DNA of 64,000 nucleotides from a virus (lineage: Duplodnaviria; Heunggongvirae; Uroviricota; Caudoviricetes). Made by a program: the position numbers and the translations under genes. The notes under the pieces were generated by a model that saw only the letters and a program-made list of their open reading frames with translations, searched no databases and had not been told where the DNA came from. Positions 17,426 through 23,969 of the stretch are shown here, one piece after another. Every line of letters begins with the position of its first letter. The stretch's first letter is position 1. Where the stretch lies: positions 29,793 to 93,792 of the IMG/VR virus record IMGVR_UViG_3300012983_000032. The stretch is one strand, 5' to 3'.

Positions 17426-18454
17426 TTAAAGTAAGCTTTTCAACTTTTTTTCTATAAAGTCTTTAAACTCCATGATATTATTATTACTATTTTTATATGT
17501 GATATTATCTTGTGATAAGCAAGATAATATCTCTTTAGAATCAAATATATTTAATAGGAGATGTATTTCCTGCTCCCATATTTCCTTTTTAGAAATATAC
17601 ATTCTCCCAAGAAAATAATTTATATCACAAGTACGTTTACTCTCATAATTAAAAAGTTTTGTATTAAAAGGGAACTCTATCTTAAATAATTTCATAGAAT
17701 CTTTCCAACCTTGGATAATCATTTTAAAACGGTCAATATTATCAATAGTATTATTATTAGAAATTCCTCTATGGGGATTATTAATATAGATGAACTCTAT
17801 ACGTTCGTCTATTGATGTTGCATTATTTAATGCTGCACAACATATATAAACGTCCTCATTACAAGAAATTTTAAGATGGTCAGGAATATTCTTGAAAATC
17901 TTGAGCAATAAACTTCTCTTAAACCACTTATTCCAGCAAGTTACACAAGAGTGCTCTAAATATAAGTCTGTTCTAAATTTGAATTTGTTTCGTATTGTTT
18001 TATTTTTATAAAAACTTTCTTGGTATATTATCCTTTTTTCAGACTCATTATTAAATACATAATTAAAAGCTATAATATCAGACCTACAGGAAGCAAGTAA
18101 TGCGTCCGAAATAGCCCCACAAATATCGTCGTCACCGTCAATAAACCAGACATAGTTTGAACTGGTATATTCTAATGCCCACTTTTTTGCAGCAAGTTGA
18201 CAAAGATTTTCACCCTTAGAAATACATATACCTTTATGTACTTTGAGGAACTCTTCAATTTCTGGGATAGGAATATCTTTATTTTTCTCTCTATTGTCAA
18301 CTAATACTACTTCATAAGAACAGAATACCTTTTTATGAATACTCTCTAAAAGAGAAGGTATATACTGATAGTCCTTATCACAAAATAGGCTAACTATCGC
18401 AAGGGTGTTGTATGTAATTTTCTGAAAATTACCAATAGCTATTTTTGTTTCCAT
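17426..18454 (-). CDS. Family-2 (GT-A fold) glycosyltransferase
   Basis: LAIVSLFCDKDYQYIPSLLESI...YEVVLVDNREKNKD, and DXD motif YVWFIDGDDDI. Paralog of 38121..39113. Confidence 0.55.
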   Translation of the reverse strand: METKIAIGNFQKITYNTLAIVSLFCDKDYQYIPSLLESIHKKVFCSYEVVLVDNREKNKDIPIPEIEEFLKVHKGICISKGENLCQLAAKKWALEYTSSNYVWFIDGDDDICGAISDALLASCRSDIIAFNYVFNNESEKRIIYQESFYKNKTIRNKFKFRTDLYLEHSCVTCWNKWFKRSLLLKIFKNIPDHLKISCNEDVYICCAALNNATSIDERIEFIYINNPHRGISNNNTIDNIDRFKMIIQGWKDSMKLFKIEFPFNTKLFNYESKRTCDINYFLGRMYISKKEIWEQEIHLLLNIFDSKEILSCLSQDNITYKNSNNNIMEFKDFIEKKLKSLL

Positions 18455-19272
18455 TACTTCTGTTTTTCCTTTGCTACAACTTCTTTCATACGGGTAACTG
18501 CAGTATTATCCAAACCATAAAAATTACAAAGGTCTTCTGTAGTCCACTCAGATAAATAACCTTTAAGACCTGTTCTAGGATTAATGTATTTACCCAAATA
18601 AGGTGTATATCTCCAAGGAACATTCATATCACCTTTAGTCAACTTACAAAGATATCTCATAAAGTCATTATGAATAATCTTGAAAAAGTTTTTTGCCTCT
18701 ATTTCTGTCTCTACGTTAAATGTTCTAGAACAAGAACTTGCGTCTTTACTAAAAGCAATAGACTCTTGAGGTGTCATAAACTCATAGAAGTCTCTTTTAC
18801 CTTGGTGTCCGTGAAGATTTGAAACTCTAACAAAAGGTGTATCAAAATTACATACTCCCATAGAAGTAAGGTATTTATCTATACTTTCCGCTTGACCTGT
18901 AATAACAGGAATAACAACTTTTTCAAGAAAATCATTGTCTTTAGACTTATAGATTTGTCTGTAGTCTAAAGTTCCATCTTTTTTCAAAGTATATATACCT
19001 AAGTCAGTCCAAATATCTGCATTAAAGTATTTCTGTGCCTCTTCTCCTGAAATGTTAGTAAAATCTGTTAAATGACTACAAATTGACCCTTCAAACTTAA
19101 CAAGGTCTGAACCAGCTTTATACCTTGCAAGAGAGTCTTGCAGCCACCTAGATGGAGATAAATTTACAAGTACGCTTTCTTTATCGTCTAAAAGACGAAT
19201 AGTACTACTGAGTATTTCCAAATGTAAACTACCCATATAAGGTGGGTTCATAATAATTTTATTAAATTTCAT
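18454..19272 (-). CDS. NPPY-motif protein. It matches an amino-MTase catalytic/target-recognition half but lacks an N-terminal AdoMet-binding region.
   Basis: Begins MKFNKIIMNPPYMGSLHLEIL. Paralogous to 19360..20127 and to the C-terminal two-thirds of 20159..21367. No FxGxG motif seen. Confidence 0.45.
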   Translation of the reverse strand: MKFNKIIMNPPYMGSLHLEILSSTIRLLDDKESVLVNLSPSRWLQDSLARYKAGSDLVKFEGSICSHLTDFTNISGEEAQKYFNADIWTDLGIYTLKKDGTLDYRQIYKSKDNDFLEKVVIPVITGQAESIDKYLTSMGVCNFDTPFVRVSNLHGHQGKRDFYEFMTPQESIAFSKDASSCSRTFNVETEIEAKNFFKIIHNDFMRYLCKLTKGDMNVPWRYTPYLGKYINPRTGLKGYLSEWTTEDLCNFYGLDNTAVTRMKEVVAKEKQK

Positions 19273-19279
19273 AATAATT

Positions 19280-19289
19280 TATATTAACA
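19280..19289 (-). promoter_or_regulatory. TGTTAATATA box 7 nt before ATG 19272 (leaderless configuration)
   Basis: motif, no SD. Confidence 0.4.
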
Positions 19290-19359
19290 TTTCTGAAAAT
19301 GAGGTAAACCTAATCATAGGGGTATTCTTATTTTTTGATTTCTTTGCCATACTTCCTCC

Positions 19360-20127
19360 TTAGATATAATCTACGGCATTTCTATCTTCTGACCATTTAA
19401 GTCCCATTTCTTTCAAAACAGCACCGTCATAATCTTTATTTTTCCAAAGGTCTGTCTTATCAATATTTTCCCAATCAATTTGGGGTATTGCAAGATAACA
19501 TAACCTTGAAGAGGTTTGTTTATTCAAACCAAATAACAGTTTATTTGTTAGCCCATTTTTTGAGTCTGAATAAGCCCAAGTTGTAAAGTTTTCTCTTTCT
19601 TTAGGATTATTAAACCTTATTACACATAAGGCATGAATAAATATTTTTCTTTCTCTTTGAACATTCCATTTATACCCTTGACCTGTTCCACCGTCAAGAA
19701 TACCAGTATCCCAATTTACAAGTCTACTACTATCTACAAAATCACAGTCAAAATTGAAGTCGTCTTCTGTAGAATAGTCACACCTTTCAAAAACATATTT
19801 TACAGGTAATTTATAATTTCTTTCATAGAAAGGGAAAAAATTAGGTTTATATGTCTTCATTTCCAATTCTATAAAATCTTTATATGTTTTTTCATTACCT
19901 ACTTTACAAATACATAATTGCTTAGTAAGGTCTGCCTCTGAGAAAAACTTAGGGTCAGACATTTGTATATCTTTAACAAAAGAATACAATTTGTTAGACT
20001 TGTAATTACTCACGGGCATTAAGATAACATACTCGGAGTTGATGTATTCATCATGAACAAATGACATTATCTTTCCACCTAGACTACCAAGATAGGGTGG
20101 ATTAGCCAATATTTTTGTAAAATTCAT
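19360..20127 (-). CDS. NPPY-motif protein, truncated-MTase-like paralog
   Basis: Begins MNFTKILANPPYLGSL. RBS GAGGTAAAGAAG upstream. Confidence 0.45.
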   Translation of the reverse strand: MNFTKILANPPYLGSLGGKIMSFVHDEYINSEYVILMPVSNYKSNKLYSFVKDIQMSDPKFFSEADLTKQLCICKVGNEKTYKDFIELEMKTYKPNFFPFYERNYKLPVKYVFERCDYSTEDDFNFDCDFVDSSRLVNWDTGILDGGTGQGYKWNVQRERKIFIHALCVIRFNNPKERENFTTWAYSDSKNGLTNKLLFGLNKQTSSRLCYLAIPQIDWENIDKTDLWKNKDYDGAVLKEMGLKWSEDRNAVDYI

Positions 20128-23106: not shown

Positions 23107-23146
23107 TATATCCTCTTTTAAAAAATAATATACCTATATATTAACA

Positions 23147-23156
23147 CAAAAATCCC
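23147..23156 (-). promoter_or_regulatory. GTGTTAATATA promoter, 40 nt before helicase ATG 23106, directly after a terminator hairpin
   Basis: motif. Confidence 0.5.
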
Positions 23157-23184
23157 CTACTCACTGGTAGGGGATTTAAATATT
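23157..23184 (-). terminator. Terminator hairpin (cccctactcactggtagggg) immediately upstream of the helicase promoter
   Basis: Hairpin then ATTTTTGTG on the minus strand. Confidence 0.6.
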
Positions 23185-23201
23185 TCTGTACTGTAATTCT
23201 C

Positions 23202-23969
23202 TTAAAGTAAGTCTTTCAAATATTTTGGCAAAATATCTCGCCAAAAGAAAGGAACTTGATTGTTAATATTTTGATTTAAGGTCTTTGCGTCAATAAAAAC
23301 AACATGACGATAAAGTGCTTTATTTTCTTTCAAAAAAGTAGATACCTCATTATCTGTGCTTAGCCAACAGATAATAACATTTTTTGTTTCTTCTGGTTTA
23401 ATCAACTCCTCTGCAACAGCTTGACCAAAAACTCCCTGAATTACACTCATATTAAGTGTAGTTCCTGCAAAAGGATTCCAAAACTTTATCTGTATTGCAC
23501 AGTCTTTTTCTTTTGCCCCTACAGAATATGTACAAACCGCGTCTACACCAAAGTCGTGTTCACTTGACTTTAATGGGACAGGTACCACATTCTGAAAATG
23601 ATACATTTCATTAGAAACTAAAAGGGAATTAACATTTGTAAGTAAGCAGTTAAAGAAAATTTCACCAAATGCACCAATACAGAAATTTCGCATATCGTCA
23701 TTTTCTGCATTAGAATATGTTGGTTCTATTGACTTTACCCAGTCAATGTACTTCGGTACAGCTTTTTTATCTATAAAATTTCTATAGGTATTAACATTTG
23801 TAATATTAGATAATGTTTCCCAAAAATCTGAAGGGCATTGTGAAAGGAATTTTATAAGATTTGTACTGTACTTAGGCATATCACCGTACATACCTTTCCA
23901 AGTCAACTTTGATAACCAAACATCGTGTTTATTATCAATATAATATTCAAATCTTTCTTTATTAGTCAT
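23202..23969 (-). CDS. Hypothetical protein with a possible PD-(D/E)xK nuclease-like core
   Basis: HDFGVDAVCTYS ... KDCAIQIKFW is compatible with a D...(E/Q)xK pattern. This is weak. Confidence 0.25.
   Translation of the reverse strand: MTNKERFEYYIDNKHDVWLSKLTWKGMYGDMPKYSTNLIKFLSQCPSDFWETLSNITNVNTYRNFIDKKAVPKYIDWVKSIEPTYSNAENDDMRNFCIGAFGEIFFNCLLTNVNSLLVSNEMYHFQNVVPVPLKSSEHDFGVDAVCTYSVGAKEKDCAIQIKFWNPFAGTTLNMSVIQGVFGQAVAEELIKPEETKNVIICWLSTDNEVSTFLKENKALYRHVVFIDAKTLNQNINNQVPFFWRDILPKYLKDLL

Follow-up and report, generated by a model that had tools for sequence, protein, structure and literature searches.

Natural C5 methyltransferases that consist of two polypeptides are represented by M.AquI and M.EcoHK31I, both split near motif IX, and the multispecific C5 methyltransferases of the Bacillus phages SPbeta, phi3T and rho11s hold all of their target recognition domains (TRDs) in one polypeptide with one catalytic centre. 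The term for these multispecific enzymes is found in PMC8936443. In engineered split versions of M.HhaI, M.SssI and Dam, one methyltransferase fold was obtained from two assembling polypeptides (PMC3404938; PMC3439449; PMC2836561), and split DamID is mentioned in PMC6451315. Type ISP restriction enzymes are single chains of an Mrr nuclease, a helicase-like ATPase of superfamily 2 (SF2), a coupler, a methyltransferase and a TRD (PMC4666363; PMC3553950). In the present study a locus of a large, gut-type phage was analyzed, which occupies positions 17426-23969 of a 64,000-nucleotide stretch (positions 29,793 to 93,792 of the IMG/VR record IMGVR_UViG_3300012983_000032, Caudoviricetes; the whole stretch is hereafter called the window) and encodes a helicase, a nuclease candidate and three proteins with the catalytic motif NPPY. 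The window encodes candidate counterparts of the parts of a Type ISP enzyme in Type ISP order, as separate proteins. The explanation which fits best overall, and to which we give slightly better than an even chance, is that of a disassembled phage-borne Type ISP-like machine with a modular methyltransferase, whose split enzyme family is apparently undescribed.

An earlier note on this DNA, made from its letters alone, had described six open reading frames (ORFs) on the minus strand at 17426-23969. All six are present at these coordinates; dN/dS denotes the ratio of nonsynonymous to synonymous substitution rates:

17426-18454, minus strand: GT2 glycosyltransferase, 342 amino acids (aa), with GT-A fold and DGDDD motif (Pfam Glycos_transf_2, 29.4 bits against a cut-off of 23.3)
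18454-19272, minus strand: NPPY-272, free-standing C-half and full-length paralog of the C-half of the 402-aa protein (homology; upstream stop; dN/dS)
19360-20127, minus strand: NPPY-255, free-standing C-half with the catalytic strand and a divergent TRD, lacking a cofactor region (hhalign 99%; upstream stop; dN/dS)
20159-21367, minus strand: NPPY-402, 402 aa, with a GTG start that overlaps the helicase stop codon
20966-21367, minus strand: N-domain of NPPY-402, residues 1-134, with an alternating beta-alpha pattern in the AlphaFold2 model and the non-canonical motifs LGNTxGFFG and IIG[D/N]xxTxxYY
20159-20965, minus strand: C-half of NPPY-402 with beta4 and NPPY (residues 143-146), beta5-beta7 and a TRD ending WTDEMLYDFFGL (homology; model)
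21367-23106, minus strand: SF2 helicase-like ATPase, 579 aa (motifs GVGKSG, DEAH, TATP and QTIGR; Pfam Helicase_C; phrog_16)
23202-23969, minus strand: candidate Mrr-like PD-(D/E)xK nuclease, 255 aa (invariant E103, D139-F-G-x-D143 and Q160-x-K162)

The NPPY sequence, which is catalytic motif IV, is present in all three window proteins, and in alignments of the homologs its two prolines are invariant, with N and Y nearly so. Over the entire length of the 272-aa protein its identity with the 402-aa protein amounts to 32% (BLAST, E 1e-33); NPPY-255 shares only its first 22-60 residues with the other two by BLAST, and the profiles of the 255-family and the 272/402-family align over 202 columns (hhalign probability 99%, E 3e-18). 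Both short ORFs open with M-x-F-x-K-I-x-x-NPPY and start eight residues before NPPY, which is strand beta4. Since in-frame stops lie two (NPPY-272) and four (NPPY-255) codons upstream of their ATGs, with stop-to-stop lengths of 274 and 259 codons, neither possesses a hidden N-terminal extension, and as the spacers measure only 31 nucleotides (nt) between the 402 and 255 genes and 87 nt between the 255 and 272 genes, no region for binding S-adenosylmethionine (AdoMet) is concealed upstream; in neither chain does such a region precede motif IV. The dN/dS values are 0.04-0.21 for the 255 gene and 0.04-0.07 for the 272 gene, next to 0.10-0.20 for the helicase and 0.04-0.07 for the nuclease-like gene. 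Both short copies are thus under strong purifying selection, and together with the upstream stops these low values indicate working half-enzymes and not relics; frameshift joins, hidden extensions and pseudogenes were rejected on the grounds of stops, spacer lengths and dN/dS. The view of the earlier note that the short paralogs are N-terminally truncated, gamma-class-like halves devoid of the AdoMet region was borne out, and the complete methyltransferase with an unrecognised start, which it had named as a counter-possibility, was not encountered.

An AlphaFold2 model of the 402-aa protein, as recommended in that note, was built on a 60-sequence alignment (predicted local distance difference test score, pLDDT, 86; predicted template modelling score, pTM, 0.78). 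Its strands run in the order beta1-beta7: beta1 (residues 22-27), a helix (48-63), beta2 (67-72), a helix (74-91), beta3 (97-101), helices up to residue 132, beta4 (139-143, with NPPY at 143-146), beta5 (164-170), beta6 (197-203) and beta7 (220-226), and the remainder forms an alpha/beta C-terminal domain. The model therefore displays a seven-stranded class I methyltransferase (Rossmann) fold followed by a TaqI-like TRD, and the short proteins correspond to its C-terminal two thirds. Residues aligned to the 402-aa protein numbered 270 for CamA, 262 for M.BseCI, 235 for M.TaqI, 275 for PglX, 286 for MmeI and 263 for LlaBIII; for small single-domain methyltransferases the number was 132-174, which exceeds the approximately 90 Rossmann residues after beta4, so that the N-domain would be part of the superposed fold. 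As modelled, the 402-aa protein has the gamma-class layout of TaqI, CamA and MmeI, with a cofactor side, an NPPY side and then the TRD, and the 255- and 272-aa proteins comprise beta4-beta7 plus TRD, i.e., they are half-enzymes. We regard it as very probable that both short ORFs encode working halves, for catalysis and target recognition, of a divided amino-methyltransferase family, and as probable, at a clearly lower grade, that they require a cofactor half in trans in order to methylate.

With the gamma-class enzymes (M.TaqI, CamA, M.BseCI, the Eco57I family, MmeI and PglX of BREX) the window proteins have in common the NPPY on beta4 after F/D-x-I-I and a Rossmann domain followed by a TRD. 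They differ in that the long form is without recognisable motifs X and I, that the short forms are without the whole AdoMet half, and that all of them remain under every Pfam cut-off: the 402-aa protein reaches 13.9 bits on Eco57I against a cut-off of 25.3, and the 255- and 272-aa proteins gave no Pfam match. An ending of the form '...L..FYGLT.eE' is typical of gamma-class TaqI-type families. The C-terminal motif WT[DE]E..L..F[YF]GL, which had been ascribed to all paralogs, occurs in the 402- and 272-aa proteins and is lacking in the 255-aa protein. No NCBIfam match was found for the NPPY proteins or the nuclease candidate, searches of PDB sequences with the NPPY-family profile returned nothing useful (e.g., the NPPY peptide itself), and NPPY-272 matches phrog_11371, annotated 'unknown function' (E 2.5e-7). 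Homologs P0068, P0120, P0057, P0067, P0091 and P0109 and the ortholog in Lak megaphage B2 do carry PF07669 or PF02384, the last of these exceeding the Eco57I cut-off with 27.1 bits.

The free-standing halves are not peculiar to the window. The 402-aa query yielded 474 homologs, mostly of 255-275 aa and starting 'MKFDHIIMNPPY..NLHLKIL', and the 255-aa query 109, in short and long forms. When a short-form profile was searched against 1.84 billion cluster representatives (50% identity clusters), 3,321 matched at E <= 1e-3, 1,168 at E <= 1e-10 and 394 at E <= 1e-30; of the best 140 representatives, 88 begin at the NPPY strand, an N-extension of 16-250 aa is present in 47, and in five, including helicase fusions, it is longer. 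The short form is thus the commonest form of a very large phage family, which PHROGs contain only as phrog_11371. Loci were surveyed in IMG/VR, metagenome contigs and GenBank phages, and in about 19 of the 29 non-redundant loci of the first survey the C-half gene or genes adjoin a gene of 110-190 aa; the same neighbour was found in most of the 19 loci of a later metagenome scan, which had itself been seeded with the N-half. (Aligned N-halves of diverse origin varied too much to serve as the seed of a collection scan.) This neighbour exhibits the canonical gamma-class motifs X (G.FFTP), I (LDPT.G.GN), II (YG.E.D) and III, stops exactly where 'FD.II.NPPY' would come next, and aligns with Pfam N6_Mtase over model positions 20-119, scoring 30.2 and 31.4 bits where the cut-off is 20.4. 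Two or three C-halves per N-half are common, as in L024 (N135, C267, C255, C300, in aa), L009 (C285, C293, N180) and L026 (C352, C367, N149), and in the cultured Aeromonas phage Ah1 the gene Ah1_00104 bears a C-terminal C-half next to Ah1_00103, the N-half. That the halves are compatible and belong together follows from natural fusions: L003 and L025 encode helicase, N-half and C-half in one chain (1,072 and 1,106 aa), and P0067, P0091, P0109 and P0181 are fused N+C forms with Pfam PF02384. By their sequences, the C-half/N-half gene pairs may be taken as naturally split N6-adenine methyltransferases. On the L003 contig (285 kb, metagenome) a DUF488-N3a protein (8828-9208; Pfam E 1.5e-13) is encoded between a free C-half and a free N-half gene, downstream of the 1,072-aa fusion.

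In L035 a single ORF holds the C-half and then the N-half, which is the beta-class order. On account of this fused protein and of loci with the C-half gene before the N-half gene, the split genes may be living intermediates of a circular permutation between the gamma and beta classes. A wider idea, which we put forward tentatively as a possibility well below even chances, is that phages turned the amino-methyltransferase fold into a two-piece kit, in which one cofactor half (beta1-beta3) drives several catalytic and TRD halves, the split genes possibly being permutation intermediates and the present lineage being wired to disassembled Type ISP parts. Split C5 enzymes resemble this in delivering a single methyltransferase fold as two polypeptides; in contrast, the enzymes considered here are amino-methyltransferases, cut between motifs III and IV, very widespread in phages and often with one cofactor half for several catalytic/TRD halves. 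With the multispecific enzymes of Bacillus phages they share the marking of several motifs by one framework with several recognition modules, in evasion of host restriction, but each module has its own NPPY strand here, and the shared part would be the cofactor half. In the literature no description was found of natural amino-methyltransferases split between motifs III and IV; the publications found deal with engineered split C5 and Dam enzymes and with a different 'split' in Type IIG genes. Every part of the locus belongs to a known superfamily. What appears to be new is, first, that gamma-class amino-methyltransferases are naturally and widely divided, with one half for the cofactor and one or several for catalysis and target recognition; second, that in large phages such an enzyme is coupled to a motor and a nuclease in a multi-subunit, Type ISP-like form; and third, that the clade of the window has lost the canonical cofactor half.

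Concerning the motor, the SF2 ATPase motifs of the helicase are intact (Pfam Helicase_C 27.6 bits; phrog_16 E 2.5e-18), the approximately 160 C-terminal residues (420-579) match no known family, and no coupler domain was identified; against the PDB its profile gave only weak matches to XPB, UvrB and FANCM. The helicase-methyltransferase fusion of L003 matches Type I HsdR (3h1t, E 5e-6). For the gene upstream of the helicase only seven homologs were found, across which E103, D139-F-G-x-D143 and Q160-x-K162-FWNPF are invariant, and in its model (pLDDT 71, pTM 0.75) these residues occupy a helix and a consecutive pair of strands, the placement known from PD-(D/E)xK/Mrr nucleases. Relatives display the same association. 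In L036 a helicase (33% identity), an Mrr-like gene (33%), an NPPY protein with N-extension and a canonical N-half occur in that order; Lak megaphage B2 has a helicase (28% identity), an Mrr-like protein (hidden Markov model E 1e-15, YGVDAVC...VIQVKF), a 448-aa NPPY protein and a canonical N-half; and in L048, L055, L056 and L062 a helicase/Mrr-like pair is placed beside a canonical N-half, with the NPPY protein between them in L048 and L056. Judged by sequence similarity and gene order, the linkage of helicase, Mrr-like gene and NPPY protein is strong, and among the readings proposed in the earlier note it is the Type ISP-like module that comparative genomics supports best. A Type III system, also proposed there, is not supported: the motif order (N-domain, NPPY, TRD) is gamma-like and not beta-like, and the helicase carries no nuclease domain at its C-terminus, the nuclease candidate being encoded by a gene of its own upstream.

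The likeness to Type ISP enzymes consists in a candidate Mrr nuclease, an SF2 ATPase, a gamma-class adenine methyltransferase and a single C-terminal TRD downstream of the motor, in the same order (PMC4666363; PMC3553950). In contrast to the single polypeptide of Type ISP, the window has three separate genes, with the nuclease split off by a hairpin and a promoter-like motif into its own transcription unit; it is without an identified coupler, the cofactor region of its methyltransferase departs from the canonical form, it has two catalytic/TRD half-proteins in addition, it resides on a large phage and not on a plasmid or chromosome, and no sequence-level match of its proteins to LlaBIII or LlaGI was found. 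Upstream of its helicase/nuclease/NPPY operon and of an IS1595 transposase gene, L036 also encodes (1-2676) a fusion protein in which an SF2 helicase is followed, at the C-terminal end, by a class I methyltransferase (Pfam Methyltransf_8, E 2.6e-28).

In the mechanism proposed, the core would consist of the Mrr-family nuclease (255 aa), the SF2 helicase-like translocase (579 aa) and, in the 402-aa protein, an N6-adenine methyltransferase of gamma-class-like type whose TRD resembles that of TaqI, the latter two translationally coupled and probably in one complex. The Rossmann fold would divide between beta3 and beta4 into an N-half with the cofactor side and a C-half with the NPPY strand, beta5-beta7 and the TRD. 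NPPY-255 and NPPY-272 are free C-halves of two large phage families, which elsewhere stand beside a free canonical AdoMet-binding N-half; each C-half would bring its own DNA specificity and adenine pocket and would be active only once a cofactor half has docked on its beta4 edge, whereby one phage could mark several DNA motifs. In a restriction-like use, unmarked host or competing-phage DNA would be attacked by helicase and nuclease, and a purely protective use would let the phage evade several restriction systems of the host. That helicase, nuclease-like protein and 402-aa protein act jointly as a Type ISP-like restriction or self-marking machine is a proposition for which we see a little less than an even chance.

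Specificity is subject to change in this system. The genes flanking the 402 gene are 95-97% identical between the window and L042, and the 402-aa protein is 94% identical to its ortholog there in the N-domain, 70% in the Rossmann C part and only 19% in the TRD (residues 231-340), which has been replaced; the dN/dS of the whole gene is 0.30-0.45. This identity pattern is the one expected of a swapped DNA-recognition module. The subunits of Type I restriction-modification systems (HsdR, HsdM, HsdS) likewise combine a PD-(D/E)xK nuclease, an SF2 motor and an N6_Mtase-type methylase and change specificity by TRD swap or inversion, with which the TRD replacement in the window and an inverted silent TRD in Lak-B2 may be compared; they differ in that here nuclease and motor are separate proteins and the TRD is fused to the catalytic half instead of forming a separate HsdS with two TRDs. 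The inverted silent copy in Lak-B2 (L040, a Prevotella phage, MK250021; locus positions 11164-12249) is a partial one of the 3' TRD-coding part of the NPPY gene, with arms of 277 nt (79% complementary) and 111 nt (88%), and to judge by its sequence this megaphage arrangement is that of an invertible switch of DNA specificity. For the window an invertible or cassette 'shufflon' was rejected, as there are no long inverted repeats; the only direct repeat there is an NPPY-coding stretch of about 34 nt (68-76% identity).

The N-domain of the 402-aa protein belongs to a type, here called type A, with the invariant residues G27, T29, G31, F32, F33 and G34 (LGNTxGFFG), N54, W57, N60, E61, I70, G72, Y79 and Y80, and its predicted beta-alpha pattern is consistent with Rossmann beta1-beta3. 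In L007 the counterpart of this N-domain (48% identity) is joined without an intervening part to a 255-type C-half, giving 389 aa, and a free 272-type half (85% identity) follows; the junction before 'MKF..I..NPPY' hence behaves as a module boundary. Halves of the 255 type occur both free and fused to a type-A N-domain (P0123, P0124, P0134, P0142). For the N-domain profile no PDB sequence matched at E < 0.1, and a match to the designed protein 8dz8 ('neoleukin-4') in the PDB profile searches was dismissed as spurious.

A number of observations weigh against a Type ISP-like machine with a working modular methyltransferase. The N-domain is without FxTP and DPxxGxG, position 73 is Asn in the window clade where most relatives have Asp after beta2, hhalign found no relation to canonical N-halves (probability 0.1%), and with motifs so non-canonical AdoMet binding by the modelled domain is no more than putative. 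In L036, Lak-B2, L046-L052, L056, L059 and L060 a canonical N-half lies 4-40 nt downstream of the protein composed of N-extension and C-half, and because these relatives keep it in addition, the fused N-domain may not be a working cofactor half. No stand-alone N-half of either type was detected in the 64-kb window of the approximately 220-kb genome when all stop-to-stop ORFs were searched with both N-half profiles (hmmsearch); only the 402-aa protein itself and the AdoMet region of a beta-class methyltransferase (30411-31160) matched, so that the window contains C-halves only and not the pair of free C-half and free canonical N-half, and among the 19 loci of the metagenome scan, seeded with the L036/Lak N-half, none came from the window's own sample. 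As to the nuclease, the match to Pfam Mrr_cat_2 (E 7.8e-4) is below the cut-off, Foldseek with the model returned nothing significant (top rows FokI and BamHI), a profile search of PDB sequences gave nothing useful, the gene forms its own transcription unit by promoter-like motif and terminator-like hairpin, and the defence models of PADLOC found nothing beyond a weak PbeA match to the helicase. The PD-(D/E)xK protein suspected in the earlier note therefore draws support from its invariant E, D and Q-x-K residues and from linkage, and with a pLDDT of 71 the assignment as Mrr-like nuclease is held with moderate confidence.

These points bear on several other explanations. Were the short ORFs decaying remnants of a duplicated methyltransferase, or complete enzymes with a mis-called start, their unequal lengths could be put down to tandem duplication and subsequent truncation; yet their dN/dS is as low as that of helicase and nuclease, the upstream stops and short spacers leave no place for a missing half, and hundreds of independent homologs begin at the same 'M.F..I..NPPY' position, which makes this hardly credible. 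Under the idea of a two-piece kit, in which this lineage no longer has the canonical cofactor half at the locus, its orphan C-halves would have to rely on the unusual N-domain of the long protein, on a gene farther away, or act without AdoMet. In a pseudo-enzyme explanation, the N-domain of the 402-aa protein would be unable to bind AdoMet and the short forms would have no cofactor half; the NPPY proteins of the window clade would no longer methylate and would be adenine-flipping, sequence-specific DNA binders, e.g., regulators, or subunits that confer specificity or act as 'readers' in loading the helicase-nuclease. Such a role would agree with the absence of canonical motifs X and I and of similarity to real N-halves, and with the lack of a stand-alone N-half in the 64 kb as well as in the relatives L042-L045 and L007, a loss that looks real given that relatives outside the clade keep the adjoining canonical N-half. 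We consider it quite unlikely, however, as NPPY and the surrounding motifs of the catalytic half are strictly conserved under strong purifying selection, the AlphaFold2 model of the N-domain has the beta-alpha order expected for beta1-beta3, a motif I variant with 'GNT' is accompanied by an acidic residue behind beta2 in further fused proteins (e.g., P0156), and about 155 kb of the roughly 220-kb genome lie outside the 64 kb in which an N-half was sought. Methylation without any restriction-like coupling is another alternative: the NPPY set would be multispecific orphan methyltransferases against restriction, the helicase would aid access or be unrelated, and the Mrr-like protein would have another task, e.g., in host DNA breakdown or repair. 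The complete orphan-type beta-class methyltransferase of the same phage at 30411-31160, the many C-half/N-half loci without a nearby helicase or nuclease, the promoter-like motif and terminator of the nuclease gene and the lack of a restriction-modification or defence model in PADLOC all speak for it. Nevertheless, we judge it unlikely, for the helicase/Mrr-like/NPPY linkage persists at about 30% identity in at least six independent contigs, with changed order and gaps of 1-40 nt, and the model of the nuclease candidate most resembles a Type ISP enzyme's nuclease domain.

Base glycosylation, which the earlier note had considered on account of the GT2 gene, would require that NPPY proteins and GT2, assisted by the helicase, build a glycosylated or otherwise modified base. 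In its favour, the GT2 start overlaps the NPPY-272 stop, an arrangement kept in the closest relatives L042-L045, and a gene similar to UDP-glucose/GDP-mannose dehydrogenases is located nearby in L042 (5550-6326) and L007 (2602-3381), between the RNA ligase and nuclease-like genes, where the window has none. GT2 is absent, however, from L007, L036, Lak-B2, L003 and every other C-half locus surveyed, so that it occurs in the closest clade only, and wherever present it precedes three convergent ORFs for polytopic membrane proteins (window 15091-17401, plus strand) and then a flagellin gene, which in the window is complete (13913-14773, minus strand; Flagellin_N E 2.5e-38, Flagellin_C E 4.8e-22). 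The flagellin gene and its three neighbouring membrane ORFs are kept in L042-L045 and L007, with GT2 also there in L042-L045. Pfam, PHROGs and NCBIfam scans of 17426-25324 showed no base-hydroxymethylating or related pyrimidine-modifying family, and tblastn of GT2 in the phage collection gave one weak match (25% identity, E 1e-4), to a 7-kb phage contig from human feces that carries no annotation. GT2 is accordingly a neighbour and not part of the conserved core, its participation in DNA modification is highly improbable, and a hypermodification pathway as a whole is very remote. Since GT2 is always accompanied by membrane ORFs and flagellin, a protein or surface-glycan substrate seems at least as likely as DNA; it may glycosylate flagellin or a surface glycan.

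The transcription of the module can be outlined from the following elements:

23994-24019, minus strand: terminator-like hairpin behind the RNA ligase gene, delimiting the module on its upstream side (11-pair stem, then a T run)
23975-23984, minus strand: promoter-like motif TGTTAATATA, directly upstream of the Mrr-like gene (10-mer enrichment)
23150-23177, minus strand: terminator-like hairpin between nuclease gene and helicase gene (hairpin scan and sequence reading)
23137-23146, minus strand: promoter-like motif TGTTAATATA, upstream of the helicase gene (10-mer enrichment)
19280-19289, minus strand: promoter-like motif TGTTAATATA, with its end 7 nt upstream of the ATG of NPPY-272 (10-mer enrichment)
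19279-19350, minus strand: 23-codon ORF (MAKKSKNKNTPMIRFTSFSEMLI) with an AGGAGG Shine-Dalgarno sequence, inside the 255/272 spacer (sequence reading)

Where 0.82 copies of the 10-mer TGTTAATATA would be expected, the window has 18, all on the same strand as the listed ORF just downstream; it is probably a phage-specific promoter element. Further sites are found, e.g., at 1102-1111 and 35097-35106, and as some copies lie only 4-7 nt before an ATG, some transcripts may be leaderless. Likely transcription units are the nuclease gene alone, helicase, 402 and 255 genes with possible read-through into the next unit, and 272 with GT2. The single operon from the helicase onwards, as formerly assumed, thus holds as far as NPPY-255, with NPPY-272 preceded by its own promoter-like motif and the upstream 255-aa gene set apart by its own motif and the hairpin. 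Translational coupling, assumed for all these genes, finds support in overlaps for the pairs helicase/402 and 272/GT2 only; it does not for 402/255 with their 31-nt spacer, nor for 255/272, whose 87 nt hold the promoter-like motif and the 23-codon ORF. In L044/L045 a 9-nt gap is found in place of this spacer.

Elsewhere in the window, the beta-class enzyme at 30411-31160 (minus strand; Pfam N6_N4_Mtase E 1.5e-33, 'DLPY' replacing DPPY, VLDNCMGSGTT motif) is a second, conventional DNA methylase of this phage and the only other methyltransferase in the 64 kb. A DnaK/Hsp70 homolog is encoded at 1159-3042 (minus strand; phrog_22485, E 3e-253), which is 53-58% identical to DnaK in other phage records, including uncultured phages of 635-735 kb, and 15 Prevotella phage records also match. 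Between the flagellin gene and a 279-aa ORF a transposase gene is situated (12250-13614, minus strand; phrog_506, E 2e-90); in L042 and L044 these two are neighbours without it, which suggests a recent insertion of an insertion sequence. A tRNA scan of the window found none, and megablast of the region against 50,697 phage records gave no match.

To judge from the linked nuclease and helicase, huge phages, Lak megaphages among them, may possess multi-subunit versions of Type ISP-like enzymes. Should the halves assemble in trans, a natural and widespread split amino-methyltransferase with more than 1,000 clusters at 50% identity would be at hand, of which the 272-aa member matches only a PHROG of 'unknown function' and most listed homologs are without a Pfam domain. 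Many 'truncated methylase' ORFs of phages would then be explained, the assignment of methylome motifs to genes would change, and there would be real examples of a fission and fusion route to the circular permutation of methyltransferase classes; the natural halves would also be possible parts for proximity-dependent (split) adenine methylation tools. For the phages themselves, the arrangement would be a cheap combinatorial means of carrying many methylation specificities, with which restriction could be evaded or self be marked.

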